The notes under the pieces: model-generated
What the model was told of the DNA's origin: nothing
What the model saw: only the letters and a program-made list of their open reading frames with translations
Database searches by the model: none
Translations under genes and position numbers: made by a program
Virus record (IMG/VR): IMGVR_UViG_2609459800_000001
Length of the DNA: 64,000 nt
Origin: a virus
Taxonomy: Duplodnaviria > Heunggongvirae > Uroviricota > Caudoviricetes
Strand: one strand, 5' to 3'
Shown: in pieces, positions 36,830-57,970 of the stretch
Numbering within the stretch: the stretch's first letter is position 1
Layout: the number at the start of each line of letters is the position of its first letter

Positions 36830-38023
36830 GTGACCTGGGACGATCACAAGAAGAATTTTGCTCGCCTGGCGCGAGATGGTGGTTACACCATCGCACAGTA
36901 TGCCGCCGAGTTTAATCTTAACCCTAATACCGCACGTCGTTATCTCCGTGCCTTCAAAGAAGACACCAGGACAGCGGACAGCCGCAAGCCAAATAAGCCT
37001 GTCAGGAAACCACTAAAAAGCATGATCATTGATCACGCTAATGATCAACGTGCAGGTGATCACATTGTGGCTGAAATGGCTGAAAAACAAAGAGTTAATG
37101 CTGTTGTCAGTGCCGCACTCGAGAACGCGAAGCGCCAAAATAAGCGCATAAATGATCGTTCTGATGATCATGACGTGATCACCCGCGCCCACCGGACCTT
37201 ACGTGATCGCCTGGAACGCGACACCCTGGATGATGATGGTGAACGCTTTGAATTCGAAGTTGGCGATTACCTGATAGATAACGTTGAAGCGCGGAAGGCC
37301 GCGCGCGCTATGTTGCGTCGGTCCGGGGCCGATGTTCTGGAAACCACTCTTCTGGAAAAGTCTCTTTCTCATCTCATTATGCTGGAGAACGCCAGGGATA
37401 CGTGTATTCGCCTGGTGCAGGAAATGCGCGATCAGCAAAAAGACGATGATGAAGGTACTCCGCCTGAATACCGTATCGCGAGCATGCTAAACAGCTGTTC
37501 CGCGCAGATAAGCAGTCTGATCAACACCATTTACAGCATCCGGAATAACTATCGAAAAGAAAGCCGGGAGGCGGAAAAGCACGCTTTATCTATGGGGCAA
37601 GCTGGCATTGTTAAGCTGGCATACGAACGAAAGCGTGAAAATAACTGGTCAGTGCTGGAAGCGGCTGAATTCATCGAGGCGCATGGAGGAAAAGTGCCTC
37701 CCCTGATGCTGGAGCAAATCAAAGCCGATCTGCGTGCTCCTAAGACCAATACCGATGATGAGGAAAACCAAACAGCATCTGGCGCTCCATCACTTGAAGA
37801 TCTGGATAAAATCGCGCGAGAACGGGCCGCCAGCCGCCGCGCTGATGCCGCATTGTGGATTGAGCATCGTAGAGAAGAAATTGCCGATATCGTCGATACA
37901 GGTGGTTATGGTGATGTCGATGCGGAAGGCATATCAAACGAAGCATGGCTTGAACAGGATCTGGACGAAGACGAGGAGGAAGACGAAGAAGTTACCCGCA
38001 AACTGTACGGGGATGATGATTAA
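36830..38023 (+). CDS. pacA: terminase (pacase) subunit PacA
   Basis: ORF track 397 aa with GTG start; contains the TGATCA hexamer cluster typical of the P1 pac site. Confidence 0.8.
37023..37181 (+). other. pac packaging site (two clusters of Dam-site hexamers)
   Basis: TGATCA(N) at 37023, 37030, 37042, 37057 and at 37153, 37165, 37176; 4+3 arrangement over ~159 bp inside pacA. Confidence 0.8.
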
Positions 38024-39507
38024 TGGCCAGAAGTTGCGTAACGGACCCACGTTGGCGCGAGCTGGTGGCGCTATATCGTTATGACTGGATTGCGGCCGCT
38101 GATGTGTTGTTTGGGAAGACACCAACCTGGCAGCAGGATGAGATCATTGAGTCCACGCAGCAGGACGGCAGTTGGACAAGTGTGACCTCCGGCCATGGTA
38201 CTGGTAAATCGGATATGACGAGTATCATTGCAATACTCTTCATCATGTTTTTCCCCGGCGCTCGCGTCATTCTGGTCGCTAACAAAAGACAGCAAGTCCT
38301 TGATGGTATTTTCAAATACATAAAGAGCAATTGGGCTACTGCTGTTAGCAGATTCCCGTGGTTGTCGAAGTATTTCATTCTTACAGAAACGTCTTTTTTT
38401 GAGGTGACTGGCAAGGGTGTTTGGACAATATTGATAAAGTCCTGTCGCCCCGGGAATGAGGAGGCGTTGGCTGGTGAACACGCCGATCATCTCTTGTATA
38501 TCATCGACGAAGCGTCGGGTGTGAGTGATAAAGCATTCAGTGTGATAACAGGTGCGCTGACCGGTAAGGATAACCGTATTCTGCTTCTTTCCCAGCCTAC
38601 GCGACCTTCAGGCTATTTCTACGATTCACACCACAGACTAGCTATTCGCCCGGGAAATCCTGATGGATTGTTTACTGCGATAATACTGAATAGTGAAGAA
38701 TCTCCGCTTGTAGATGCAAAATTTATACGAGCAAAACTTGCGGAGTATGGCGGTCGTGATAACCCCATGTACATGATCAAAGTACGTGGTGAATTTCCCA
38801 AATCTCAAGATGGCTTTCTTCTTGGTCGTGATGAGGTTGAGCGGGCGACGCGGCGAAAGGTCAAGATTGCCAAAGGATGGGGCTGGGTTGCATGTGTTGA
38901 CGTTGCTGGTGGCACAGGACGAGATAAGTCCGTTATTAATATCATGATGGTGTCCGGCCAGCGAAATAAACGCCGTGTAATCAACTATCGTATGCTGGAA
39001 TACACAGACGTTACAGAAACGCAGTTAGCCGCCAAGATTTTCGCAGAATGTAACCCAGAACGGTTCCCGAACATAACCATAGCTATTGATGGCGATGGCT
39101 TGGGGAAATCGACGGCTGATCTAATGTACGAACGCTATGGCATTACCGTCCAGCGTATCCGCTGGGGTAAAAAGATGCACAGCCGTGAAGATAAAAGCCT
39201 TTATTTCGATATGCGCGCTTTCGCGAATATTCAGGCGGCAGAAGCTGTAAAATCAGGGCGTATGAGGCTTGATAAGGGGGCTGCGACTATAGAGGAAGCA
39301 TCAAAGATACCGGTAGGGATAAATTCCGCAGGTCAATGGAAGGTGATGTCAAAGGAAGATATGAAGAAAAAACTCAACCTGCACTCACCGGACCATTGGG
39401 ATACATATTGTTTCGCTATGTTGGCGAACTATGTTCCCCAGGATGAAGTGCTTAGCGTCGAAGACGAAGCGCAGGTTGATGAAGCTCTGTCATGGCTTAA
39501 TGAATGA
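38023..39507 (+). CDS. pacB: terminase (pacase) large subunit PacB
   Basis: ORF track 494 aa; Walker A-like GHGTGKSD; ATG overlaps pacA stop. Confidence 0.8.
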
Positions 39508-39866: not shown

Positions 39867-40088
39867 GTGGCTACTATCCCTACCCCAACTCATCCTGAAT
39901 TTATCTGGCGCTTTTACTCCTGCCAGAAACGTCACTATCACTTCGTTATTGCACCGACAGAAGATGAGGCTCGCTCTCAGCTTCCGGATGCACCCTGTAT
40001 TTTCTCTGCCCGCTTTTCTACCGATTCGCGCAATTCTCTCAGTTACTGGAGCCTCCCTGTTAACGCTTCTGCTCAGGAGGGACTATGA
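39867..40088 (+). CDS. small protein overlapping antirepressor start (icd-like arrangement)
   Basis: ORF track 73 aa, GTG start after AAGGAGG; ATGA overlap with next gene. Confidence 0.4.
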   Translation: MATIPTPTHPEFIWRFYSCQKRHYHFVIAPTEDEARSQLPDAPCIFSARFSTDSRNSLSYWSLPVNASAQEGL

Positions 40089-41197
40089 GAACGTCATTAG
40101 TCACCCGTGAAGAGATGATCGAGGCAATTGAACAGCACACTGCCTGTATCAGTACCAGGGATATACCGGGCGTTATTGCCAACTACTTCATGATCACCAA
40201 ACAACTTTACCGGAGAAAGGACAAGAACTCGGTTCACCGCATTCTGCTAACCGATATCCGTGAATACCTGCTCGAACAGGGTCATCTGAATTACGCAACC
40301 GTCGCAGCCGAAGCACGCAAGGAGGCACACAGAATGAAAGCAACTAACGTTAAATCAGAAAAAATTTATGCACCTTCAGTTCAGGAATCGGAACTGGTGG
40401 TTGTTCAGAATCAGCCGGATGAAATTCCCGTTCTGGAATGGCAGGGAGTACGTGTCGTGACAACCGAAACTCTTGCTAGAGGGTATGGGGTCGATGAAGC
40501 CAATATTCGCAACAATTTGTCTCGCAACCTTGACCGCTTTGAAGAAGGTAAGCATTACTTTCTTCTAACTGGTTTAAAATTAAGAGAATTTAAGAACAGA
40601 GTAACCGGAAGTTACTCTGTTGGTAAGAACGCCAGAAGCCTTACACTCTGGACAGAGCGCGGCGCTGCACGCATGTCTAAGATCGTGGACACAAATGAAG
40701 CATGGGCATTCTTTGAAAAACTGGAAGACAGCTACTTCCGGCAAAAAGAACAGCAACCGGTTGCAATCCCCCAAACATTACCAGAAGCCCTACGCCTGGC
40801 TGCCGAACTGGCTGAACAAAAGCAGCTTCTGGAACAGAAAGCCCACCAGCTAAATCAGCAGCTGGTGGCCGCCGCTCCTAAGGTCGATTTTGCCGACCGG
40901 GTATCAGTAGCTAAAGGGATCCTGATTGGGAATTTTGCAAAGGTTGTTGGACTTAAGCAAAATGCGCTGTTTGCCTGGTTACGGGAGAACGGCATCCTGA
41001 TAGCGTCCGGTGGACGTAAAAATGTGCCGTTCCAGCAGTACATTAACGCCGGGTATTTCACGGTGAAAGAAGTGGTGCTGGATGATGAAGATGGCTACCA
41101 GATACGGTTGACGCCTCAATTAACGGGTAAAGGCCAGCAGTGGTTGACGCGTAAACTGCTCGATGCTGGCTTGTTAAAACCGGTGGCAGCTGAATAA
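40085..41197 (+). CDS. phage antirepressor (ORF6N-like N-domain plus KilA-C/Ant-like C-domain)
   Basis: ORF track 370 aa; N-terminal TETLARGYGVDEANIRNNLSRNLDRFEEGKHYF; C-terminal VDFADRVSVAKGILIGNFAKVVGLKQNALFAWLRENGIL. Confidence 0.6.
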   Translation: MRTSLVTREEMIEAIEQHTACISTRDIPGVIANYFMITKQLYRRKDKNSVHRILLTDIREYLLEQGHLNYATVAAEARKEAHRMKATNVKSEKIYAPSVQESELVVVQNQPDEIPVLEWQGVRVVTTETLARGYGVDEANIRNNLSRNLDRFEEGKHYFLLTGLKLREFKNRVTGSYSVGKNARSLTLWTERGAARMSKIVDTNEAWAFFEKLEDSYFRQKEQQPVAIPQTLPEALRLAAELAEQKQLLEQKAHQLNQQLVAAAPKVDFADRVSVAKGILIGNFAKVVGLKQNALFAWLRENGILIASGGRKNVPFQQYINAGYFTVKEVVLDDEDGYQIRLTPQLTGKGQQWLTRKLLDAGLLKPVAAE

Positions 41198-41229: not shown

Positions 41230-42081
41230 TTATTGCGCGCTTTCGGGGTTGTCGTTTACTGGCTGCCCCTTCTTGGTTTTACGGCTGCGCGTAACTGATG
41301 CGGCTGACTTAACCTTTTTCTCTTCGCGAGTGATGGCAATTTGTTTTTTTACATTTTCAATATCTGCCAGGCGATATATTTTTGCTTGCGGCCAGCGGTC
41401 GCAGATGATCGGTTCTATGGAGTCATAAAGGCTAAATTTTGCTTTTTCGAATTCACCGTTGATGATAATTCCATCACGGAGAGTTTCATCGCAGATAAAC
41501 ACGCCACACAGTGGCACATGGTAACTAACTGATTTACCATCATTGTAGTTAGGGCTACTGGAAATGTAGTGGACGCGCAGCATTGTTTCGCTAAAGCCGT
41601 GTACGCGCATACGGAATTTTTCATCCTCCGGGTACTGCCTCATTAGCTCTTTTGTTGCTTCCAGGTTCTCTATGTATTTCGCACTGTGCTCATTGATCCC
41701 CGCGCTTTTTTGGATGCGAATGTCCTTATCAATCAGATGAATAATGCGGCCAGCGGTCATGTTGACGCTGTTCACAGCTTCTGTCTGATAAGTTGTAACC
41801 TTGCGCACACCGCGAAGGATGTTAGGCACTGGATATAAAATAGTCTTTGGGATATTGAGGTCTGGGTACTGTTCCAGTTCCCGCGCCATTAAAGTCCATT
41901 TATCAATTTCAGCCTGAATGCTGTCAGTTTCTTTGAACGGTAGAACGACAACCGGGCGTACAGGACGACCGTCGCTGGCTGTATCAACGTGTTGGGCGCG
42001 TGCAACAGCTTTTTTTAGAAAGAGATCCCTGAAGCTGACGAACTCCTGGTACAGTTGTTCGCCGTAGACATAATTTATCAT
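41230..42081 (-). CDS. c1: C1 repressor of lysis
   Basis: ORF track 283 aa MINYVYGEQLYQEFVSFRDLFLKK...; size and sequence recognised as P1 C1. Confidence 0.85.
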   Translation of the reverse strand: MINYVYGEQLYQEFVSFRDLFLKKAVARAQHVDTASDGRPVRPVVVLPFKETDSIQAEIDKWTLMARELEQYPDLNIPKTILYPVPNILRGVRKVTTYQTEAVNSVNMTAGRIIHLIDKDIRIQKSAGINEHSAKYIENLEATKELMRQYPEDEKFRMRVHGFSETMLRVHYISSSPNYNDGKSVSYHVPLCGVFICDETLRDGIIINGEFEKAKFSLYDSIEPIICDRWPQAKIYRLADIENVKKQIAITREEKKVKSAASVTRSRKTKKGQPVNDNPESAQ

Positions 42082-44772: not shown

Positions 44773-44976
44773 TTATAATTGAGCCGTGGCGTTAGTCAAC
44801 TACGAAGACGTGGCCATTACCTACTTAACCAGTTCCGCCAGGGCAGCAGAGTAGGTTTCATCTCGGATGTACCATGCCTGCATGTTTTCCAGAGAAGCCC
44901 GCGAGGTTCCCGGACAGGACTCTGCCATTGCGATAGATTAAATGCAATAACCTAAAAGCGATAACGTGGTGGAAAA

Positions 44977-45614
44977 ATGTTCATCAGAGCTTATTTAAGG
45001 GCATCAACGGAAGATCAGTTTGCCGATCGGGCAAAAGAGATGCTGGGGCAGTTTGTTCAGGAGCGGGGACATAAAATAGCCAGTTACTACCGGGAGAACA
45101 TAAGCGGTACAAAACTCGACCGCCCGGAACTGGGACGCTTACTGATGGACAGCCACCGCAATGATATTTTACTGGTCGAGCAAATTGACCGCCTGACCCG
45201 TCTGAGTAACAGTGACTGGATTACGCTGAAAAAGCAGATAGAACAACACGAACTGCGGATTGTCGCCTGGATGTATCCACCTCATGGCAGGCGCTGTCAG
45301 ATAAAGACCCTTCGCAGGCTGACCCAATCACCCGCGCCGTGATAACCGCCATCAATAACATGCTTATCGACCTGATGGCCGCGATGTCGCATAAGGACTG
45401 GCTGAGCCGTCGCCAACGGCAACAACAGGGAATTGAACGGGCTCATACGCTGGGTAAATACCGGGGATAACAGGCCGATCAGGAACGGCATCAGAAAGTC
45501 CTGTACTACCGGCAGGTCAAGAAACTAAGTATCCATGAAACGGTAGATGCGACAGGGTACAGTCCTTCACAGATATGCCGCATTCAAGAGAGCCTGAATC
45601 GGAATAAAAAGTAG
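44977..45614 (+). pseudogene. serine recombinase (resolvase) pseudogene, frameshifted and interrupted by a stop
   Basis: N-terminal catalytic domain MFIRAYLRASTEDQ (track ORF 44977..45342); continuation in another frame ...DPITRAVITAINNMLIDLMA...GKYRG, TAA stop, then HTH-like LSIHETVDATGYSPSQICRI. Confidence 0.6.
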
Positions 45615-45713
45615 CCCTGGCGTTAATGGATTACCTTTCCAGGCTAAGCTCATTGCTCCTGTCAGATACGCAGCCCTGCCTGTAATAATACAGACTGGGC
45701 AATGTGTTGCCAC

Positions 45714-46115
45714 TCAGGCTGACAACTGTCGGAGGATATCCGCTGTATTATAATGAGCCCGTTTTTCTATATATTTCCCGTCCTTCAGAGTGATCATAAA
45801 TATCAGAGAAAAGCGCACTTTCCTGCCGCTGGCAGGATGCCCAAGGAATTCACGGGTCTGCACGCCTTCAAAGATAAGATAGCAGGCGACTTTATCGTCT
45901 CTGGCAAAGATTTCGTGGATACGCATTGTAAATCCCGGAAAAGCATCCATATGGCCTTTTTCCTGTACGATAAACTGCTCACTGTTCAGCGGTGTATCCA
46001 CCTGAGAATAGAATTTAAAATCCGGATGGCAGAGGTTTTTCACCTCATCATATTTATTTTCTTCAATCAGACGATAAAACTTTTTAACCGTTTTGATATT
46101 TTCTTCAACAGACAT
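45714..46115 (-). CDS. SnoaL-like / NTF2-fold protein
   Basis: ORF track 45714..46127; start set at MSVEENIKTVKKFY with GAGGTG upstream. Confidence 0.5.
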   Translation of the reverse strand: MSVEENIKTVKKFYRLIEENKYDEVKNLCHPDFKFYSQVDTPLNSEQFIVQEKGHMDAFPGFTMRIHEIFARDDKVACYLIFEGVQTREFLGHPASGRKVRFSLIFMITLKDGKYIEKRAHYNTADILRQLSA

Positions 46116-46123
46116 ATTGCACC

Positions 46124-47113
46124 TCATTTTTCAGTTTCTTTACCTGCCGGAATATTGCCTGCCGGCGTTCCGTTAAATGTTTTTCGCCATTCACTGGGAC
46201 TGACTCCCATCCGCTGCCGGAATATCTGCCGGAAAGTAATGGTGGACTGAAAGCCTGCCAGTTCGGCAACCCGCTCCACTGCAATATCTGTACTTTCCAG
46301 CAGTTCCTGACTCCGCCGGAGACGCTCTGTGGTGATCCACTCCCAGACCGTCATTCCTGTGGCCGAATGAAAATGGCGTGTAAGCGTTCTTCGGCTCATG
46401 GAGGCTAAATGGGCCAGAGTGTCAATATCATGTGGTAATCCCAGATTTGCGGACAGGTATTCCAGCAGCTGGTTTATGCGGTTATCGGACGTACTTTTGG
46501 GAATAAGCAGTTGCCGGTACTGTGCCTGTCCGCCTTCCCGGTAAGGAGGAGCAACCATCCGGCGGGCTATTTGATTAGCCGTATATCTGCCCAGGCGTTG
46601 CCGGATCACATGGAGACAACAGTCCAGTGCTGCGGCTGTACCGGCTGAGGTGATAATCCGCTCGTCCTCAACATAAAGCACGTTCACGTCCAGATGAACC
46701 GCCGGGAAAAGCATCTGGAAATCCCGTTCAGCCTCCCAGTGCGTGGCCGCCCGTTTACCATCCAGCAGACCGGTGTAAGCCAGAACAAAACTCCCCAGGC
46801 ACAGGCCCACCACCTGAGCTCCATTTTTCCAGGCTGCAACCAGGGCACTGAGCAGAGTTTCAGAAGGCCTTTCATGGATGTGTTTCCAGAAAGGAATAAT
46901 AACGATATCGGCCTCTGCCAGTGCATCAAGCCCGTATTCTGCCCTCATCGCCGTACCTTCAGCAGACCAGATAAGCCCGGGCTCTTCCGCACATACCCGG
47001 CGGCTGAAGAGAGCCTTCCCTTCCAGTATCTCCCCGAACAGGATTAGTGGAACGGAGACATGAAATGTACTGAACCCTTCGGTGATCACTATAGCGACAG
47101 TGATGGTGGACAT
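46124..47113 (-). CDS. GlxA-family transcriptional regulator (DJ-1/PfpI domain plus AraC-type HTH)
   Basis: ORF track 329 aa; C-terminal AraC HTH (RRTLTRHFHSATGMTVWEWITTERLRRSQELLESTD). Confidence 0.65.
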   Translation of the reverse strand: MSTITVAIVITEGFSTFHVSVPLILFGEILEGKALFSRRVCAEEPGLIWSAEGTAMRAEYGLDALAEADIVIIPFWKHIHERPSETLLSALVAAWKNGAQVVGLCLGSFVLAYTGLLDGKRAATHWEAERDFQMLFPAVHLDVNVLYVEDERIITSAGTAAALDCCLHVIRQRLGRYTANQIARRMVAPPYREGGQAQYRQLLIPKSTSDNRINQLLEYLSANLGLPHDIDTLAHLASMSRRTLTRHFHSATGMTVWEWITTERLRRSQELLESTDIAVERVAELAGFQSTITFRQIFRQRMGVSPSEWRKTFNGTPAGNIPAGKETEK

Positions 47114-47128
47114 GCCATGGCCTCCGGG

Positions 47129-47905
47129 TTAAATCGTAACTGATTCACCATCAGCAGGAACGGCAACTGACGCCTGGATCTGGTTATCGCGGGCATATTC
47201 CAGCAGTTCCTGACGGGTCAGCAGACAGTGGTTTACGGCCTCCATGTGCGTTGCCACAATCAGTGCCTCTGGTACGATACGATGGGCTTTCAGGACATCT
47301 TCCCTGCCGAAAATAATGGGGCCGAATCCGAGAACATGCGCCCAGCCCGTATTCATAATAACGACGCCAGGATTGAACCGACGTAAATTATCCTCTACAG
47401 CCTTGATCCAGATGGTATCCCCGACCAGATAGAGCGTTTTTTCGGACGGATGCTGGAAGACCACCCCACAGGCATCCCCAAGGATTGCTGCGAGTTGCGG
47501 GTTAGCATAGGCTTCGTCCGAACCATGCTGACAAACGGTTTTAATAAGTGAAATTTCGCCAAATGTGCTTTTGTCAGACAGAATAACAAGGTTGCTGAAG
47601 CCCTGGGAACGCAGGATCTTTTCATCATGTTCATTCTGAACATAAATCAGTTTATCTTTCGGGATGTGCGCAACAGCCGCTTCATCCCAGTGGTCAGGGT
47701 GTGTGTGGGTGACAATAATGGCATCCACATCCAGCAGTACATCAAGGTCAAAAGGCAGCTCAGTCATCGGGATGCGGATATCTGACCGGGCCGTTCCTTC
47801 GAATCCCGGATAGGCTTCTTTTTTCGCAAGCATCGGATCGACAAGAAATTTTTTACCAGCGTAAGAAATGAGTTGTGTGGCGTTACGTACCTGGATGATC
47901 TTCAT
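47129..47905 (-). CDS. MBL-fold metallo-hydrolase
   Basis: ORF track 258 aa; THTHPDHW metal-binding motif. Confidence 0.65.
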   Translation of the reverse strand: MKIIQVRNATQLISYAGKKFLVDPMLAKKEAYPGFEGTARSDIRIPMTELPFDLDVLLDVDAIIVTHTHPDHWDEAAVAHIPKDKLIYVQNEHDEKILRSQGFSNLVILSDKSTFGEISLIKTVCQHGSDEAYANPQLAAILGDACGVVFQHPSEKTLYLVGDTIWIKAVEDNLRRFNPGVVIMNTGWAHVLGFGPIIFGREDVLKAHRIVPEALIVATHMEAVNHCLLTRQELLEYARDNQIQASVAVPADGESVTI

Positions 47906-48120
47906 TTTAGCAAGTCCTGTATTGGTTAATAACCATCAGAGCCATATCATGATGGCCTAATGTGATAATTATGATTAAATCAGGCCTGCCTGCCACTGAA
48001 ATAATGCCATATTTGGATGATATCAGGCCATTCTTCTGGCTCTCAGGTTTCAGGAATATGTCTGCTGAAAGCGGGTACAGATCTGACGCATTGAAGGGAA
48101 GTATCGTCCTTTAAGGCTTA

Positions 48121-48510
48121 TTGATGTCAGCCAGTACAAAAAATCATCTTAACGTACAATATCTTCCGTTTCCCAAACGGAGCCCACCAACGACGGAGGA
48201 ACGGCGCGTCGCCAATGCTCTTGGCGCTCTCCCCTGCATTGCCTGCTATATGCATGGAGTAATATCTAATGAGGTGTCTCTGCACCATATCGCCGGTCGT
48301 ACCGCGCCGGGTTGTCATAAAAAGCAATTGCCACTTTGTAGATGGCACCACCAGCATGCAGCTCCGGCGGAAGTAAGAGAAAAATACCCATGGCTGGTCC
48401 CTGTTCATGCCGATGGTGTGGTTGGAGGCAAGAAAGAATTCACCTTGCTGAACAAGTCAGAGATGGAGTTACTGGCTGACGCCTATGAGATGGCAAATAT
48501 CATGCACTAA
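48121..48510 (+). CDS. HNH-motif protein (possibly Ref-like)
   Basis: ORF track 129 aa; CIACYMHG...HHIAG...CRWHH. Confidence 0.4.
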   Translation: MMSASTKNHLNVQYLPFPKRSPPTTEERRVANALGALPCIACYMHGVISNEVSLHHIAGRTAPGCHKKQLPLCRWHHQHAAPAEVREKYPWLVPVHADGVVGGKKEFTLLNKSEMELLADAYEMANIMH

Positions 48511-49538: not shown

Positions 49539-50147
49539 ATGTCTAATACCTCGGCAAATGAAATTGTACCGCACTTACCGCTAATTTTCGAAAATGAAGC
49601 TAATGGGATTCTTCAGGATCTGGCCTATACTCCATCGCTTATGGGGTTGATGATGTTCCCGACAGAAGAGGAGCTGAAAGCAGCGAGAAGCTACATAATT
49701 AACGTTTTTGAAGAGTGTTACCGAGCCGGTCATTTGCGCATTATGGGCTTTACTAATGAAGAAAACTTGTTCGGATACGCCTTAATCTTCGGACATCCAT
49801 CGGGAAATTTTCCGTTGTACTGTCATAAAATATATGTATATGAGCAATATCGTGGTAATGGACTTGGAAGTAATATACTGGCAGAAATACTTGCATTTCC
49901 AAATGAGGTCGCTTTGATTTGCCAGTCTGATTTGGTTCCTTTTTATGAATCAGCCGGAATGCACTTTAAAGGAAATTACACCACTCCATCAGTCGCCAAT
50001 TTCAAAAAAACTCGCGGCATGTATGAGGGGCTTTGTTTGATGAGCACTGAAAAAAATGCAAACTCTAATGGTGTACCTATATTCATGCTGAACGATAACG
50101 ATATTGATAACATCATACAGGCTATCGCATCATCGGCACCACGATAA
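49539..50147 (+). CDS. GNAT-family N-acetyltransferase (AT-rich accessory gene)
   Basis: ORF track 202 aa; acetyl-CoA motif YVYEQYRGNGLGSNIL; AT-rich gene and 200-bp AT-rich upstream region. Confidence 0.55.
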   Translation: MSNTSANEIVPHLPLIFENEANGILQDLAYTPSLMGLMMFPTEEELKAARSYIINVFEECYRAGHLRIMGFTNEENLFGYALIFGHPSGNFPLYCHKIYVYEQYRGNGLGSNILAEILAFPNEVALICQSDLVPFYESAGMHFKGNYTTPSVANFKKTRGMYEGLCLMSTEKNANSNGVPIFMLNDNDIDNIIQAIASSAPR

Positions 50148-50229
50148 TATTAATAATTCATCTCGCCGCAGGAACTACAAACCAGTTGATTGTTTGTGAA
50201 ACGCCCGGTGCAAACCGGGCCAACAAAAC

Positions 50230-50948: not shown

Positions 50949-52316
50949 TTATGCGTATTGTTGGATGACGGCCAGAACGTCCGACACGTTGTGTTTTGTC
51001 TCGATAATCCACCAGTTGCCCGGGAAATCGCTGTTCTTCGCCTTCGCTGGCACCCAGCGAGCGCCGAATTTTTCCTTGATTGCGTCTTTAGCACGGAAAA
51101 GAACGCCTTTCATGCCGGACGCCTCCTGAAGCCCAAATACCTCGCCAGCGGCGAATTTTGGTGCGTACATCATCTTCAGGTCGGCGGTGGATACGCGATA
51201 ATTCAGACCAAGAGACTGAGCTATGCTGGTGGCATCACCCTGTATTGATGATAACTCTTCTTGTTTCTCGTTTCTGGCGGCAATTTCTTCCTCCGTGATG
51301 TTGCCAAGGGCCAGGTTTATCCGATCAGCGTCGGCCTGTTTCTCTTCATCGGTGCGCCCGGCAAGAACCGTGTTAATTCTCTGCAATATCTCCACATGAT
51401 TCTTGCGCATGCTGAGCAATTCCGGCGTAACATCGTTAAGATCCACCAGCCCAAGGATGGCAAGGTCGGAAAACATTGATACCAGGTTGTAGGTCATGCG
51501 ATAGCTGAGTTGGCTATAGGCTGATGGCAACTGCACCGCATCCATTTGATAGGCATCCATAAATTTAGAGCCGTCGTTTACGACATCCGCAATTGCCGGT
51601 GTGATTTTCCCTGTGGTGGCGGCCTCCCTGATTGCTGTTACCCACGATTGAGTCAGCGCGGCGACTGCATGATTCAGATTGGCTTTCCGTTCTGCTGCAA
51701 TGCGCGCGCTTGCTGCGTCCATTGCCTGCTTGATCTCGTCTTTATTGCTGTAAATGCCAATGGGACCAAACTGTGTTGTGGTGATCTCATAATCTGACGC
51801 CCGGAACTCATTGGTACCGAAAATGGCATTGGTGACCTCAAGTTCAGAATCCCCGTTACGAGTAGCCCCCTGACTTGTTTTCTCCGGCATTTTTGCGATC
51901 GCATCCGCTATTTTCTCCTGAATTGCTTCAGGGGATAGCGTATCTCCGTATGACGCGATTACATCGCTATAATTGGATCCAAACAGTTCAGTCAGGAATA
52001 CTTCTGCCAAACGGACCTGGCGGTTATTCCCTTCCGACATCATACCAAGCACCCATTTAGCAATTGACGACTTCAGCGCGCCGTCACGGCGATCCGGGTA
52101 AACCGCATGCTTCAGTGGGTCCGTATAGGTACCAACAAAATCAATGCTATAGCCTGACTCTGTAGTCTGAACGCCGTATGAGTCAGTGATTTTGATCATG
52201 CCGCGCTGCTGGAAACGGTAGAAATCGTCACAGGAAATGATGTCGTTAATCCCGGCGATGGAGACGCCACCACTGATTTTCTGCATAACAGCATCTTCAT
52301 CGGGAGTTACATCCAC
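50949..52316 (-). CDS. hypothetical protein, possible C-terminal portion of a disrupted DarB-like gene
   Basis: ORF track 455 aa; lies downstream (same strand) of the interrupted methyltransferase/helicase ORFs. Confidence 0.3.
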   Translation of the reverse strand: MDVTPDEDAVMQKISGGVSIAGINDIISCDDFYRFQQRGMIKITDSYGVQTTESGYSIDFVGTYTDPLKHAVYPDRRDGALKSSIAKWVLGMMSEGNNRQVRLAEVFLTELFGSNYSDVIASYGDTLSPEAIQEKIADAIAKMPEKTSQGATRNGDSELEVTNAIFGTNEFRASDYEITTTQFGPIGIYSNKDEIKQAMDAASARIAAERKANLNHAVAALTQSWVTAIREAATTGKITPAIADVVNDGSKFMDAYQMDAVQLPSAYSQLSYRMTYNLVSMFSDLAILGLVDLNDVTPELLSMRKNHVEILQRINTVLAGRTDEEKQADADRINLALGNITEEEIAARNEKQEELSSIQGDATSIAQSLGLNYRVSTADLKMMYAPKFAAGEVFGLQEASGMKGVLFRAKDAIKEKFGARWVPAKAKNSDFPGNWWIIETKHNVSDVLAVIQQYA

Positions 52317-53070
52317 CTGTTATCCAGCGTCTTCACATCCCAGTTACCCGATTTGGTGCCTTTGAAGGTAAAGATGATCTCCACGTCTGCGCGCTGGCTG
52401 TCGAAGTCCAGCGACTTAATGCGAACGATATCACCGGCACAATCGTAGTATTGGCCTACACGCCATGAGCGATCGCCGATAACAAGGAACTCACTCGCAT
52501 GGTTAACCAGGTCAGGATCAACATCCAGAATGCCTTTATTTATTGCATCCTCCACCAGTGGGCGCAGGCGTTTGATATCCGTCGCGGCCTTCTGAGTACG
52601 GTTCAATAATTTCTCATAGCGGGAGATGGCTTGAGAGATATTAGCCTTGCGCTGAATGGCGCTTTTCAACGACGCGCGATACTGTGCTAACAACATACGG
52701 TCTGTGTGATGGACACTCCCCCAGCGGGCCTTCCAGTCTGCGTTATCAGCTGCTTTGGCCATTACCGCCTGTTTGAATTTAGCTACCTCGGCGGTGGTCT
52801 TTTCAAATTCCGCTTTGCTTCGCTCTAATTCAGCGGTAAGTACCTCCACATCCTCACCAGCTGCGTGCTGCGCCTTGATGTAGTTCTGAAGGTCGATAGT
52901 AGCCTGTTCTTTCTGGCGAGCGCGTTGCGCGGCTTTCGCCTTATCCATTTGAACCTGCATCATTGCCAGACGTTCACCGTCATCCTTCGCGGTATACATC
53001 TGCATTTCGATCATATCATTGGCGTCGGCGTTCTCCATTTCTGACTTATCTGAACGGAGGATATCGGAGA
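52307..53070 (-). pseudogene. ORF fragment truncated at left inverted repeat (part of disrupted DarB-like gene?)
   Basis: Track ORF 52307..53098 starts on TTG inside the repeat; frame is open right up to the repeat boundary. Confidence 0.35.
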
Positions 53071-53309
53071 TCCTGGGCTTCGTTTGGGAAACGTACAATA
53101 TTGTACGGTTGCGCTATTGCGGTAGGGTGTACTCCAACGCTATACGGTCTTTGGCAGACCTTTAGGGAAATGAGATAAGCTAAATGCGATAAGAGAAAAG
53201 CAATAACTTAAAGGCAATAGCTGATTACGATAAATCAATCAGTTACTTATCAGTATCGATTAAAAAATGCTCCTAACGTACAATAATTTCCGTTTCCCAA
53301 ACCGACCCC
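53071..53309. repeat. left copy of ~240-bp inverted repeat (MITE-like, short terminal inverted repeats)
   Basis: Near-perfect reverse complement of 56729-56968; each copy bounded by GTTTGGGAAACG...CGTTTCCCAAAC. Confidence 0.8.
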
Positions 53310-53320
53310 TAATAGCCGGA

Positions 53321-53500
53321 CTACGGACGCGCAATAATTCGCCCCTGACTTTCCAGCAGTTGGTAAGCATGTCCGACGGTCATGAAGCTCATGCCGCTGC
53401 TGGCGACCTGTTCGCGCAGTGACGGCAGACGATCGCCGGGTCGCCAGACGCCAGAGGCGATCTGTTCGCAAAGTTGTTCAGCCAGACGCTGGTATTTTTT
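53321..53500 (-). pseudogene. N-terminal fragment of a GntR/MocR-family regulator (winged HTH), no start codon, truncated after ~60 codons
   Basis: Minus-strand translation KKYQRLAEQLCEQIASGVWRPGDRLPSLREQVASSGMSFMTVGHAYQLLESQGRIIARP then stop next to the repeat. Confidence 0.5.
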
Positions 53501-53670
53501 ATTCTGGTTTCTCGTCGGTCAATGCAGGTGAGCCTCGCAGTGTATAACAGTGAATAAAATTCACAACGATTTGCAAACTGTTATGGTTAAATATGTCTGT
53601 TCTGTTTCTGCCCCTCATTGCCTCACACGCTTAGAATTGCGCTGAATCAATTTTTAATGCGGAGTCAGGC

Positions 53671-55071
53671 ATGTTTGGTCTTGATGCGTATCACCTGGCA
53701 AGGATCCAGTTCGCCTTTACAGTTTCATTTCACATTATCTTTCCGGCGATCACCATTGGGCTTGCCAGTTATCTGGCGGTGCTGGAAGGCCTTTGGCTAA
53801 AAAGCAAAAATCCGGTCTGGCGCTCGTTGTACCACTTCTGGTCAAAAATATTCGCCGTAAATTTCGGCATGGGCGTGGTTTCCGGTCTGGTGATGGCCTA
53901 TCAGTTCGGCACCAACTGGAGCGGTTTTTCGGAATTCGCAGGCAGTATTACCGGGCCGTTGCTTACCTATGAGGTGCTGACCGCTTTCTTCCTTGAAGCC
54001 GGATTCCTCGGGGTGATGCTGTTTGGCTGGAATAAAGTCGGTCCGGGTTTGCATTTCTTCTCAACCTGCATGGTGGCGCTTGGCACCCTCATTTCCACCT
54101 TCTGGATCCTGGCGTCTAACAGTTGGATGCAAACGCCGCAGGGGTTTGAGATCGTCAACGGCCAGGTTGTGCCCGTGGACTGGTTCGCCGTTATCTTCAA
54201 TCCTTCGTTCCCTTATCGGCTGCTGCATATGTCCGTCGCCGCATTTCTCAGTAGCGCGCTGTTTGTCGGCGCTTCGGCAGCCTGGCATCTGCTGCGCGGC
54301 AACGCAACGCCAGCCATTCGCACGATGTTTTCCATGGCGTTGTGGATGACGCTTATTGTCGCGCCGGTGCAGGCGTTAATCGGCGATATGCATGGGCTGA
54401 ACACCCTGAAACATCAGCCAGCCAAAATCGCCGCGATTGAAGGTCACTGGGAAAACCCGCCGGGTGAGCCCACGCCGCTGCTGCTGTTTGGCTGGCCGGA
54501 TATGGAACAGGAACGCACCCGCTATGGACTGGCGATCCCGGCGCTGGGAAGCCTGATCCTGACGCACAGTCTGGATAAACAGGTTCCGGCGCTAAAAGAA
54601 TTCGCCAAAGAGGATCGCCCTCACTCGACGATCGTGTTCTGGTCGTTTCGCATCATGGCCGGCCTGGGCATGTTAATGATCCTGCTAGGGCTCTGTGCGC
54701 TCTGGCTGCGCTACAGGCAGCGCCTCTACACCTCGCGCCCGTTCCTGCGCTTTGCGCTATGGATGGGACCCTCGGGGCTCATCGCCATTCTCGCGGGCTG
54801 GGTGACCACTGAGGTCGGACGCCAGCCGTGGGTGGTGTACGGTTTACAGCGTACTGCCGACGCGGTGTCGGCCCACGGCGATTTACATATGAGCATTTCG
54901 TTGCTCGCTTTCTTTGTTGTCTACAGCTCAGTCTTTGGCGTCGGCTACAGCTATATGATTCGCCTGATCCGCAAAGGCCCGCTGGAAGATGATTCCGCGC
55001 CGCCGCCGGGCACACCCGCCAGGCCGCTTTCCGCCGCCGTCCTCGATTCTCAACATAAGGCACATCGCTAA
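53671..55071 (+). CDS. cytochrome bd-type ubiquinol oxidase subunit I (short Q-loop, CioA-like)
   Basis: ORF track 466 aa; MFGLDAYHLARIQFAFTVSFHIIFPAITIGL..., GRQPW motif; lacks the long Q-loop insert. Confidence 0.8.
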   Translation: MFGLDAYHLARIQFAFTVSFHIIFPAITIGLASYLAVLEGLWLKSKNPVWRSLYHFWSKIFAVNFGMGVVSGLVMAYQFGTNWSGFSEFAGSITGPLLTYEVLTAFFLEAGFLGVMLFGWNKVGPGLHFFSTCMVALGTLISTFWILASNSWMQTPQGFEIVNGQVVPVDWFAVIFNPSFPYRLLHMSVAAFLSSALFVGASAAWHLLRGNATPAIRTMFSMALWMTLIVAPVQALIGDMHGLNTLKHQPAKIAAIEGHWENPPGEPTPLLLFGWPDMEQERTRYGLAIPALGSLILTHSLDKQVPALKEFAKEDRPHSTIVFWSFRIMAGLGMLMILLGLCALWLRYRQRLYTSRPFLRFALWMGPSGLIAILAGWVTTEVGRQPWVVYGLQRTADAVSAHGDLHMSISLLAFFVVYSSVFGVGYSYMIRLIRKGPLEDDSAPPPGTPARPLSAAVLDSQHKAHR

Positions 55072-56081
55072 TGGGTATTGATTTATCGGTTATCTGGTTT
55101 GTGATCATCGTTTTCGCCACGCTAATGTATATCGTGATGGATGGATTCGATTTGGGTATTGGCATTCTGTTTCCTGTCACACGAAACGCAGAGGATCGTG
55201 ATGTGATGGTCAATAGCGTCGCGCCGGTGTGGGACGGTAATGAAACCTGGCTGGTGCTGGGCGGCGCGGGGCTGTTTGGGGCTTTCCCGATGGCCTATGC
55301 GGTTATTATCGATGCGCTGACCATTCCGTTGACGCTGATGCTGATCGGACTGATTTTTCGCGGCGTGGCCTTCGAGTTTCGCTTCAAGGCCACGCCAGCC
55401 CACCGCCCATTTTGGGACCATGCTTTTCTCGGCGGGTCGATTCTGGCTACCTTCGCCCAAGGGATCGTGGTTGGCGCAGTGATCAACGGTTTCCCGGTGA
55501 CCGGTCGCAGCTACAGCGGCGGGCCGTTCGACTGGTTAACCCCCTTCACTCTGTTCTGTGGCGTCGGACTGGTCGTTGCCTATGCGCTCTTAGGCGCAAC
55601 CTGGCTGGTGATGAAAAGCGAAAATCCGCTTCAGGATAAAATGCGCAGCGTCGCGAAAAAACTGCTGCTGGCCCTGCTGTTGTCAATTGCGATAATCAGC
55701 CTCTGGACACCGTTAGCGCATCCGGCGATCGCCGACCGTTGGTTTACGCTTCCCAACCTGGGCTATCTGCTGCCGGTTCCGGTGCTGGTGATCGCGTTCA
55801 GCGTCTGGTTATGGCGCACACTGGGTCGTCCGGAAAACCACACGTTTCCGTTTGTGCTGACGCTCGGGCTAATCTTCCTTGGTTTCAGCGGCCTGGGCAT
55901 CAGTATCTGGCCGCACATTATTCCGCCTTCGGTTACCCTCTGGCAGGCAGCCGCCCCCGCCCAGAGTCAGGGGTTTATGCTGGTCGGTGCGCTGCTCATC
56001 ATTCCGGTGATTTTGGTGTACACCTTCTGGAGTTACTATGTGTTTCGCGGCAAAGTGCAACATGGCGAGGGGTATCACTGA
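55071..56081 (+). CDS. cytochrome bd-type ubiquinol oxidase subunit II
   Basis: ORF track 336 aa polytopic membrane protein; ATG overlaps subunit I stop. Confidence 0.8.
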   Translation: MGIDLSVIWFVIIVFATLMYIVMDGFDLGIGILFPVTRNAEDRDVMVNSVAPVWDGNETWLVLGGAGLFGAFPMAYAVIIDALTIPLTLMLIGLIFRGVAFEFRFKATPAHRPFWDHAFLGGSILATFAQGIVVGAVINGFPVTGRSYSGGPFDWLTPFTLFCGVGLVVAYALLGATWLVMKSENPLQDKMRSVAKKLLLALLLSIAIISLWTPLAHPAIADRWFTLPNLGYLLPVPVLVIAFSVWLWRTLGRPENHTFPFVLTLGLIFLGFSGLGISIWPHIIPPSVTLWQAAAPAQSQGFMLVGALLIIPVILVYTFWSYYVFRGKVQHGEGYH

Positions 56082-56209
56082 TGCAACATTCTCTCTGGAA
56101 ACGCCTGATGTGGCTGGTCATCCTTTGGGGCGGCAGCGTGTTGGCGCTGGCGGCGGTGGGCATGTTTTTTCGCCTGCTCATGACTGCGGCGGGGTTTAAA
56201 GCGCATTAA
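56081..56209 (+). CDS. CydX-like small membrane subunit (42 aa)
   Basis: ATG overlaps subunit II stop (TGATG); MQHSLWKRLMWLVILWGGSVLALAAVGMFFRLLMTAAGFKAH; below ORF-track cutoff as an independent ORF. Confidence 0.5.
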   Translation: MQHSLWKRLMWLVILWGGSVLALAAVGMFFRLLMTAAGFKAH

Positions 56210-56313
56210 GCGGACACCTCGCCGGATGTCGGCTTTGGGCCAGGCGTTAACCGGCGGAAATAAATACCAACACAAAGGCCCGGTAAACGCCACCGGGCTG
56301 ATGTCGCAAAGGA

Positions 56314-56728
56314 TTAAGGTTTACGCTTCGGCAGCGTTTTCATCAGATCTTCCGGACTGACGGAACCCACCACGCTGCCCGGCAGCGGCATTTTAAGAAT
56401 GTGATCTTCAATCTTGCCGATAACGTGCATTTCACACGGGCGACAGCCAAATTTCAGCGTCAGCACCTCATCACCGTTGACCAGTTGCATTGGCGTCGCT
56501 TTCCAGCTTTTGATGTTACCTTTCGCCTGTTTCGGGCAAAGATTAAAGGCAAAACGCAGGCAATGCTTGGTGATCATCACAGGCACATCGCCCTTTTCTT
56601 GATGCGCTTCATACGCCGCGTCGATCAACTGTACGCCATAACAATGGTAGAACTCACGCGCCTTCTGGTTATAGACGTTTGCCAGAAAACTCAGATGCGT
56701 CTGCGGGTAGACCGGCGCGGGATCGGAG
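56314..56728 (-). pseudogene. 3' fragment of a larger gene truncated at right inverted repeat (function unassigned)
   Basis: Track ORF 56314..56628; frame stays open upstream (…PDPAPVYPQTHLSFLANVYNQKAREFY…) to the repeat boundary with no start. Confidence 0.4.
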
Positions 56729-56968
56729 GGGTCGGTTTGGGAAACGGAAATTATTGTACGTTAGGAGCATTTTTTAATCGATACTGATAAGTAACTGATT
56801 GATTTATCGTAATCAGCTATTGCCTTTAAGTTATTGCTTTTCTCTTATCGCATTTAGCTTATCTCATTTCCCTAAAGGTCTGCCAAAGACCGTATAGCGT
56901 TGGAGTACACCCTACCGCAATAGCGCAACCGTACAATATTGTACGTTTCCCAAACGCAGCCCAGGTAC
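56729..56968. repeat. right copy of ~240-bp inverted repeat
   Basis: Reverse complement of 53071-53309. Confidence 0.8.
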
Positions 56969-57594
56969 GCGTTTTTAATTGCCATATCCCGCGCCGATTG
57001 CGCCACCGCGCTGGTGGGCAGATAGGCCAGTTGTGACGCTTCGCGACCATTTTTATAGCTATTGCGGTAGTTGTGACCTTCGTCGGCGATCACACTATCG
57101 AAGCCCATATCCTCAAAGTACGGATACTTCTCTGCTTTTTCGGTGCCGGTATCTGAATACTCCGACAATACCCGGCGACGCGCGGCCTCTTTGCGGTGGG
57201 AGTCGGAGTCCATTGCGCTGGCTACGCGCCCGGCAGCAACGAAGTCATAAAGCATATCCTGTGCATGCTCATCTACGGTGTCATCACGTAGCGGAATGCG
57301 GGCGTATTGTTCTTTGGTAAACACGACTGCACGGTAATTTGAGTGCGGGATTGCATTCATACGTGCCGTGATAGTGGCTTCATCTGCCAGTTTAAGGGCA
57401 TCGCGCATAACTGGAGTGCCATCAGTACCAAGAACAGGTTTACCGTTCTCATCGAGCACCGGCACCTGGCGAATCTGATCGCCATCCATCAGCACATCAA
57501 GACCGACAAACAGGTAGTTACTGAATGCCTCTTCACTCAGGAACTCTTTTGCTTCGTAATACCAGTTTTCCAGCACTGATTTATATTGTCTCAT
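56969..57594 (-). pseudogene. DExH helicase-motif ORF truncated by the inverted-repeat insertion (DarB-like)
   Basis: Track ORF 56872..57594; SVIADEGHNYRN (motif II-like); C-terminal 30 residues are encoded by the repeat. Confidence 0.45.
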
Positions 57595-57970
57595 TAAAAA
57601 CGCCGGTGCCCGCCGATGGTTCCAGAGTGTTACCTACGTCCGCGCCATAGAGGTTCATGATCTCCCAGACGCCTTCAGCGATAGGCTTTGGTGTGTAATA
57701 TTCGGAGACGGACCCGCCAATGCCGCCTTCGCCGGTGTACCCAGCCAGGATCTGGCGCTGTTCATCTGTCAGTGTCGCGCCATCCACCAGCGAATTAAGC
57801 AAATCTATCGCCTTCTGATTCGCCTCCCGGCGCAGCCGGTCATAGCTTTTGCCTTCCACCTTTTCCACGCCGTATCTAATCGGCGCTCGATGAGATGTTA
57901 TTGCCCTAATGTATTTCAATATTTCGCTGACACTTGAACAGCGAAACACCCCCATAGATAGCTTGTTCAT
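57581..57970 (-). CDS. N6-adenine methyltransferase-like N-terminal domain (DarB-like)
   Basis: ORF track 129 aa; SAM-binding-like LEPSAGTGVF; overlaps next ORF by 14 bp in another frame. Confidence 0.4.
   Translation of the reverse strand: MNKLSMGVFRCSSVSEILKYIRAITSHRAPIRYGVEKVEGKSYDRLRREANQKAIDLLNSLVDGATLTDEQRQILAGYTGEGGIGGSVSEYYTPKPIAEGVWEIMNLYGADVGNTLEPSAGTGVFNETI

Follow-up and report, generated by a model that had tools for sequence, protein, structure and literature searches.

The window analyzed here is a 64,000-nucleotide stretch of viral DNA (Caudoviricetes; IMG/VR record IMGVR_UViG_2609459800_000001). This report concerns a unit within it, in which two inverted copies of a 235-bp element bracket the genes of a cytochrome bd-type oxidase. 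From its sequence we identify the window as a P1-like IncY phage-plasmid (Punavirus). The region containing lxc, ulx, darB, prt and pro is colinear with P1 at 97-98.5% identity, and the nearest record, pEcoUTI1e, a 90-kb IncY plasmid of uropathogenic E. coli, matched at 99.5% across the full 6-kb query. The unit lies in darB, the gene of an anti-restriction methyltransferase/helicase, which occupies 6.8 kb of P1 (10469-17236, minus strand). The original prediction, made from the letters of the window alone, had placed the oxidase genes inside a phage gene of a phage-plasmid. The location was correct, but the structure is not a clean insertion, since 1,366 bp of darB have been replaced.

Anatomy of the darB locus

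A repeat search of the window returned two inverted arms (53072-53310 and 56727-56965) of 239 nt each, 3,416 nt apart. The arms agree at 238 of 239 bases (99.6% identity by BLAST of one arm against the window), and the sole mismatch falls at position 6 of the outer terminal repeat, where the left copy has T and the right copy has G. The ~240-bp inverted copies originally predicted at 53071-53309 and 56729-56968 are thus real, but those coordinates were off by 1-3 bases and the element itself is shorter. Comparison with the darB genes of P1, P7, SJ46 and RCS47 and with the IncF plasmid pEC213_1-OXA-181 showed that the three outer bases of the arms (CCT/AGG) and the single inner base (T/A) belong to flanking DNA, so that the element proper measures 235 bp (Table 1). 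We gave it the working name TIME235 (TIME, Tn3-derived inverted-repeat miniature element).

Each arm carries its own imperfect terminal inverted repeats (33 nt, 82%), as had been predicted, and these include the 13-mer motif GTTTGGGAAACG / CGTTTCCCAAAC quoted in that prediction. The motif had five close matches in the window, namely the four TIME235 ends and 48167-48179, and a sixth match, with 2 mismatches, at 50191-50203. These six matches at up to 2 mismatches compare with 1.76 expected, and none of 100 shuffles reached six. The inner end of the element, GGGGTCGGTTTGGGAAACGGAAATTATTGTACGTTAGG, is a typical 38-bp Tn3-family terminal repeat. TIME235 has no transposase gene; its overlapping open reading frames (ORFs) are at most 73 aa long and none is complete inside the element.

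The two copies bracket the 3.4-kb cargo (53310-56727) in inverted orientation, with their outermost ends intact. The description of the structure as composite-transposon-like and built from repeats resembling MITEs (transposable elements of the miniature inverted-repeat type) therefore stands, in that two transposase-less 235-bp TIMEs enclose the cargo. So does the claim that no transposase gene is present: we found no ORF of Tn3-transposase size anywhere in the window, and all that is left there of transposition genes is 105 bp of tnpA and a pseudogene of tnpR, in a decayed remnant 5 kb away. A composite transposon bounded by insertion sequences was rejected on the same grounds, the 235-bp repeats having no transposase ORF. 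The two-copy layout recurs in independent records (pEcoUTI1e NZ_CP049847.1, JBTLMT010000032.1, JBTLMR010000013.1 and NZ_JBRNIL010000002.1), which rules out an assembly artefact.

Table 1. Features of the oxidase locus, its neighborhood and the transposon remnant, in window coordinates.
Feature	Position	Strand	Remarks
Decayed copy of a TnEc1-clade Tn3-family transposon	44825..48185		replaces 281 bp of the pEcoUTI1e ref region
Internal tnpA fragment	44825-44929		105 bp
Distal res region and tnpR pseudogene	44929-45586
Three passenger genes	45714-47905		SnoaL-like, AraC/DJ-1, MBL-fold
Terminal repeat of the remnant	48148-48185		36/38 positions match the L096 transposon ends (see text)
darB 3' part, pseudogene	50949..53073	-	ORF break near 52307-52316
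Left TIME235	53075..53309	+	outer end 53075-53112 (GGGCTTCGTTTGGGAAACG...); inner end 53272-53309 (reverse complement GGGGTCGGTTTGGGAAACGGAAATTATTGTACGTTAGG); interior res-like
5' fragment of MocR/GntR-type PLP-dependent regulator gene	53310..53471	-	~54 codons (HTH part), cut by the left TIME
Native divergent intergenic region, retained	53472..53670		promoter-like sites 53560-53587 (+, upstream of cioA) and 53522-53494 (-); consensus match only
cioA / cydA-type subunit I	53671..55071	+	466 aa, short Q-loop
cioB / cydB-type subunit II	55071..56081	+	336 aa
cydZ, DUF2474 small membrane peptide	56081..56209	+	42 aa; PF10617
Hairpin	56278-56298
3' fragment of U32-family peptidase (DUF3656) gene	56314..56727	-	~137 last codons, cut by the right TIME
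Right TIME235	56728..56962	-	inverted orientation; one base off the left copy (outer repeat position 6, G for T)
darB 5' remnants	56963..57970	-	extra 2.27-kb deletion vs P1 at 57584

Between the two copies lie three apparently intact oxidase genes, predicted to form a cioA-cioB-cydZ operon with its own promoter-like region. CioA matched PF01654 (563 bits) over profile positions 1-418 of 418 and CioB matched PF02322 (340 bits) over positions 1-302 of 302, in agreement with the originally predicted full-length subunits I and II of a short-Q-loop bd oxidase. At 466 aa, CioA is ~50 residues shorter than the subunits I of the two E. coli enzymes, bd-I and bd-II (514 and 522 aa, in no stated order). 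Its alignment with them breaks into two stretches at the Q-loop, as would fit a short loop. The small peptide of the operon had been taken for a CydX-like protein; it is instead CydZ (DUF2474, PF10617), a family that Allen et al. (PMC4325964) linked to short-Q-loop, Cio-type operons. The cargo thus resembles Cio-type bd oxidases (CioAB / CydABZ) in its full-length subunits, its short Q-loop and its downstream DUF2474 peptide, but differs from the usual operons of this type in being carried on a phage-plasmid and on IncF plasmids, not on a chromosome. Cyanide insensitivity is at most a prediction for this enzyme. Promoter-like hexamers (TTAAAA, 16-nt spacer, AATAAT; consensus match only) also occur at the inner ends of the TIMEs, aimed into the cargo (53260-53287, plus strand; 56777-56750, minus strand).

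The flanks of the structure are 97-98% identical to P1 darB. The left flank ends ...GGAGATCC, followed by an orphan T, and the right flank starts AGGTACGCG. Probes for these two junctions lie 1,370 bp apart in the intact darB genes of P1, P7, SJ46 and RCS47, so 1,366-1,367 bp of darB are missing from the window. Comparison of the left and right flanks revealed no 5-bp direct repeat at the outer ends, where the original prediction had proposed looking for a target-site duplication. The gene has also been damaged, independently of the repeats, at two further places, by the 2.27-kb deletion in its 5' remnants, which carries a 2-bp filler, and by a 1-bp indel through which the 3' part falls into two ORFs.

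A MITESen1-related element and its autonomous relatives

On the evidence of its ends and interior, TIME235 is a Tn3-derived TIME and a relative of MITESen1. We compared it with the four TIME sequences, those of IS101, IMU, TIME244 and MITESen1, given in a survey of Enterobacteriaceae (Gomi & Yano 2026, PMC13367494); the MITESen1 sequence was taken from Table S2 of that paper. TIME235 showed no relation to IS101, IMU or TIME244 in this comparison; its identity to MITESen1 was 73.6% over 197 bp, or 67.6% globally. This falls short of near-identity to the 256-bp reference, and we class TIME235, from the alignment, as a distinct element related to MITESen1. MITESen1, a TIME listed in ISfinder, shares with TIME235 its architecture and has homologous ends and interior; TIME235 is 21 bp shorter, only ~68% identical globally, and has one end starting GGGC.

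TIME235 belongs to a large family. In PLSDB, 2,015 plasmid records matched it, 918 of them over at least 80% of its length, and among complete E. coli genomes it was found in 359 of 5,426, at 671 places on plasmids and 5 on chromosomes. The original prediction had named uniqueness of the repeats to this locus as an observation that would speak against it; what we found is a widespread, plasmid-borne family. Copies at least 99% identical to TIME235 are confined to 30 PLSDB records, a number equal to that of the carriers of the cio cargo.

Through short matches to the TIME ends we located an autonomous transposon in the Enterobacter asburiae plasmid pWW19C-IncFIB (locus L096, 815-6048), so that the proposed search for copies and a cognate transposase yielded both. 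This transposon encodes a 995-aa TnpA (NF033527, 1,149 bits), a divergent tnpR and two passenger genes, has the terminal repeats GGGCTCCGTTTGGGAAACGG...ATTGTACGTTAAG, and is flanked by a 5-bp duplication, TTCAT. The ends of TIME235 agree with its ends at 30-33 of 38 positions, vs 19-25 of 38 for IS101, TIME244 and IMU. A second transposon, annotated TnEc1 (locus L100), has a TnpA 76% identical to that of the L096 element. Whereas the ends of TIME235 are nearer the L096-type transposon, those of MITESen1 are nearer the TnEc1-like end in L100 (32-33/38). All family copies examined begin GGGCTGCG. The outer start GGGC is native to the L096 transposon group, because the ends of the L096 element carry it, and a decayed end was rejected as its explanation since that autonomous transposon and all examined family copies have it.

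The interior of TIME235 proved homologous to the tnpA-tnpR intergenic regions of the L096 and L100 transposons, and the same is true of the interior of MITESen1. For L096 the BLAST E value was 8.5e-9 and the Smith-Waterman score 29 (shuffle mean 9.4, z 12.5); for the TnEc1-labelled L100 they were 2.6e-9 and 32 (shuffle mean 9.5, z 15.2). In the shuffle control, 0 of 1,000 scores rose above 17. In Tn3-family elements with divergent tnpA and tnpR, the res site lies in the intergenic region between the two genes. The match to this region gives TIME235 an end-res-end architecture, with a core that is predicted to be res-like, as in IS101 and TIME244. IS101 (209 bp, from pSC101) has a res of proven function and is mobilized by gamma-delta, and TIME244 has a putative Tn21-type res (PMC13367494). 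Both are likewise miniature Tn3-family elements of end-res-end build, but they represent other Tn3 subgroups, with ends that agree with those of TIME235 at just 20-25 of 38 positions. MITESen1 and TIME235 are alike in that their interiors match the res region of TnEc1-clade transposons. The res similarity of MITESen1 was not found in PMC13367494, where the comparison was limited to the res sites of Tn3, Tn21 and Tn1721.

Neither TIME235 copy in the window has a target duplication of 5 or 6 bp at its own ends. Solo relatives of TIME235 were inspected at four loci, and a clean target duplication was absent from all of them: in L098, L110 and L111 there was none, and in L099 the flanks agreed at 4 of 5 bases (TTATA / TTACA). 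Two of these loci are in plasmids of enterohemorrhagic E. coli type (L110 12001-12234 and L111 12001-12234) and hold a 95%-identical copy with a common left flank and unrelated right flanks, which suggests that this copy acts as a recombination breakpoint. IS110-family insertion sequences lie within the terminal repeats of an IncF TIME variant (L098, about 9195) and of the TnEc1-like transposon (L100 8063-9085; ISCfr26). Insertions of this family into such ends recall the targeting of Tn21-type ends by IS4321 and IS5075.

The window itself contains a decayed copy of a TnEc1-clade transposon ~5 kb from the TIME235-cio structure (Table 1). Its res part is the 48 bp nearest tnpR, and its tnpR is frameshifted near codon 97 and interrupted by a stop codon at position 165 of the protein. 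As read from this remnant, the phage-plasmid lineage once hosted a transposon of a family that could have supplied the enzyme in trans.

Source of the cargo and its later forms

The cargo was found in 27 of 5,426 complete E. coli genomes, every time on plasmids; at megablast sensitivity there were 0 places on E. coli chromosomes, and the E. coli chromosome was therefore rejected as its source. A colinear block, 99.6% identical to the cargo, is present on IncF plasmids such as pEC213_1-OXA-181; it is free of TIMEs and longer, with the MocR gene in full (469 aa) and a larger part of the U32 gene. Since that block is longer, colinear and repeat-free, the TIME-bounded cargo is a sub-fragment of an IncF-type block.

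The nearest chromosomal relatives among the matches listed were in Citrobacter. With one genome searched per species, the best of these matches, C. amalonaticus, reached only 82.7% at the nucleotide level (CioA, 96% aa). Also among the matches listed, the whole block was colinear in Scandinavium and Pseudescherichia chromosomes (74.5-76.5%), where the genes are contiguous as the original prediction had suggested checking, and Enterobacter sp. kpr-6 matched from cioA to the U32 end (77.8%). By these comparisons, the cargo is a genuine chromosomal segment from another enterobacterium. Look-ups of the exact proteins returned only plasmid or phage-plasmid contexts among the matches listed. One 465.9-kb contig (L088, WNTS01000004.1) holds an IncF-type mocR-cio block and an IncFII repA near cobS, cobU and cobT, and is perhaps a plasmid integrated into a chromosome, or else misassembled.

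About 29 complete plasmids of E. coli, Salmonella and Shigella carry the operon at 100.0% identity, and in two IncF plasmids the figure is 99.8%. In the assembly collection, 3,692 blocks are indexed for the exact CioB protein and 1,955 for the exact CioA protein.

The common carrier form differs from that of the window. It accounts for 29 of the 30 best PLSDB matches, three IMG/VR contigs and most places found by exact-protein look-up. In this form a single TIME connects the darB 3' part, at the left outer junction of the window, with the U32 end, at the right inner junction. At the opposite end of the cargo, position 53433 is joined to darB position 57170 in reverse, with a 9-bp overlap. This is the arrangement expected, from the junctions, if the cargo had been flipped by recombination between the two copies and one TIME had then been deleted; inverted internal forms have been described for TIME244 units (PMC13367494). 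A scan of IMG/VR for the two window junctions found the left one in three contigs, all of the flipped one-copy form with cargo, and the right one in none. In flipped records (L001 2248-7158; L084, L085, L101-L106) an autotransporter gene and a ParE/Phd toxin-antitoxin pair adjoin the oxidase segment, at the place where one would look for the portal side of darB.

Two other regions of the window differ from pEcoUTI1e. A 370-aa ORF with ORF6N and ANT/KilAC antirepressor domains (40085-41197) lies between a terminase-like gene (38023-39507) and c1 (41230-42081); its stretch is unmatched in pEcoUTI1e, where terminase and c1 are adjacent. The segment 49219-50232, between ref and lxc, includes a GNAT acetyltransferase ORF (49539-50147), whereas pEcoUTI1e has a DUF2971 gene there, and it looks like another variable cargo spot.

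How the unit may have reached darB

Composite units of this kind, TIME-COMPs, were described in 2014 as mobilized by a transposase supplied in trans (PMC4133298). Among those since reported from Enterobacteriaceae, some have an inverted interior, some lack direct repeats and some sit on putative phage-plasmids (Gomi & Yano 2026, PMC13367494). Like the window unit, published TIME-COMPs consist of two short, transposase-less elements with 38-bp Tn3-type ends, in inverted orientation around a few kilobases of cargo; they are mainly plasmid-borne, and variants with an inverted interior exist. The window unit differs in that its cargo is a respiratory oxidase and not a resistance gene, its bounding element is none of the four named enterobacterial TIMEs, and it lacks a target duplication and has lost part of its target gene. 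Flanking direct repeats, the proof of unit transposition, are absent here, as they are from the IMU-bounded and several MITESen1-bounded published structures.

We consider it likely that the two TIME235 copies and the foreign genes between them form a TIME-COMP-like composite unit that was moved into darB by a Tn3-family transposase supplied in trans. By the route that we propose, cioABZ would probably have acquired a TIME235 copy on each side while the longer mocR-cioABZ-U32 block resided on an IncF-type plasmid or a donor chromosome. A TnEc1-clade TnpA acting in trans would then have recognized the two outermost ends, and the whole unit would have moved replicatively into darB through a cointegrate, resolved either at the res-like cores or by homologous recombination (RecA). 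Most simply, a later transposase-mediated adjacent deletion from one end would have removed 1,366 bp of darB together with the target duplication. The unit would now be stranded, in a window that has no intact transposase or resolvase gene, and in most descendants the cargo would have been flipped between the inverted copies before one copy was deleted.

Several observations weigh against this proposal. With no 5-bp repeat at the flanks and 1,366 bp of the target lost, direct evidence that the unit entered darB by transposition is lacking. The orphan T at 53074 is unaccounted for, the base being A in all four intact darB genes. The TIME235-cio unit has a single known insertion site, and the copies at least 99% identical to TIME235 all fall within the cio-carrying P1-like lineage. 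We found no intermediate with TIME235 in IncF or chromosomal mocR or U32 genes, and none of the four solo family copies gave a clean target duplication. The outer ends also begin GGGC in place of the usual GGGG, a start which the cognate transposon shares natively.

The loss of target sequence would be explained in one step if two separate TIME235 copies had inserted into darB, 1.37 kb apart and inverted, and a double crossover with a TIME-cio-TIME donor, homologous or at the res sites, had then swapped the segment between them. No extra deletion would then be needed to account for the loss of 1,366 bp or for the absence of a shared target duplication. TIME copies do appear to serve as breakpoints elsewhere, as in L110 and L111 with their common left and differing right flanks; the flip of the cargo shows that recombination between the copies occurs; and recombination routes have been proposed for MITESen1 structures (PMC13367494). 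Nevertheless, this account requires two independent insertions in one gene and is less parsimonious than transposition of a unit. We found no P1-like plasmid whose darB holds a solo TIME235, the 30 PLSDB records at 99% identity or more all being accounted for by cio carriers, and the three IMG/VR contigs with the left junction all hold the cargo as well. We regard it as improbable.

Intramolecular replicative inversion was rejected. Its signature requires the left-outer and right-inner flanks to be reverse complements of each other, and likewise the left-inner and right-outer flanks; neither pair fits (ATCCT vs TCCGA; TAATA vs TACCT).

Since the cargo is found in nature facing either way with respect to the 3' flank of darB, and the repeats contain a res-like core, one might suppose that the unit is a programmed invertible segment in which a recombinase, either TnpR at the res-like cores or a Cin-like invertase, switches the orientation and expression of the oxidase genes; inversion by TnpR between inverted res sites is discussed in PMC13367494. 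A single historical flip suffices, however, to explain the two orientations, as the four two-copy records are all in the window orientation and the flipped records all share one identical deletion junction. The sole tnpR in the window is a pseudogene (frameshift and stop codon), and the operon has its own promoter region inside the segment, so that inversion would not obviously act as a switch. Regulation of this kind is very unlikely.

It is scarcely credible that the oxidase genes and repeats are ancestral P1-like backbone, which the original prediction had named as a possible refutation, or an assembly artefact, even though about 29 P1-like plasmids share the operon at 100.0% identity: in P1, P7, SJ46 and RCS47 this place is occupied by 1,370 bp of ordinary, uninterrupted darB, the edges of the cargo are truncated chromosomal genes with full versions on IncF plasmids and Citrobacter-like chromosomes, the repeat family is on thousands of unrelated plasmids, and the layout recurs in independent assemblies.

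In the literature outside subscription journals we found no report of a bd-type or Cio oxidase on plasmids, including P1-like or IncY plasmids. New here are the tie between a MITESen1-related TIME, a specific autonomous transposon and the res region of that transposon; the respiratory nature of the cargo; and the site in darB of a widely disseminated P1-like phage-plasmid. The case points to a cognate autonomous transposon clade for MITESen1-type elements and gives their interiors a res-like origin, which went undetected in the recent survey (PMC13367494). Miniature Tn3-derived elements escape standard annotation, and the catalogue of their cargo in Enterobacteriaceae has so far consisted mainly of resistance genes. 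To this the present unit would add that TIMEs also move genes of core metabolism, in this case those of a terminal oxidase, from chromosome to IncF plasmids to a transducing phage-plasmid of E. coli, Salmonella and Shigella.

More tentatively, cioA-cioB-cydZ may be expressed and give a cyanide-, sulfide- or NO-tolerant oxidase that is absent from E. coli, Salmonella and Shigella chromosomes. A respiratory benefit, gained at the cost of DarB function, might then explain why the lineage is found in thousands of assemblies, although we hold this to be somewhat doubtful. If it is true, the operon would be a phage-carried respiratory auxiliary gene set in enterobacteria, delivered by a miniature Tn3-type composite, and would give its E. 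coli host a bd-type oxidase found, at megablast sensitivity, on no E. coli chromosome. Were the oxidase active, gut enterobacteria would be acquiring an additional respiratory branch by way of a temperate phage.

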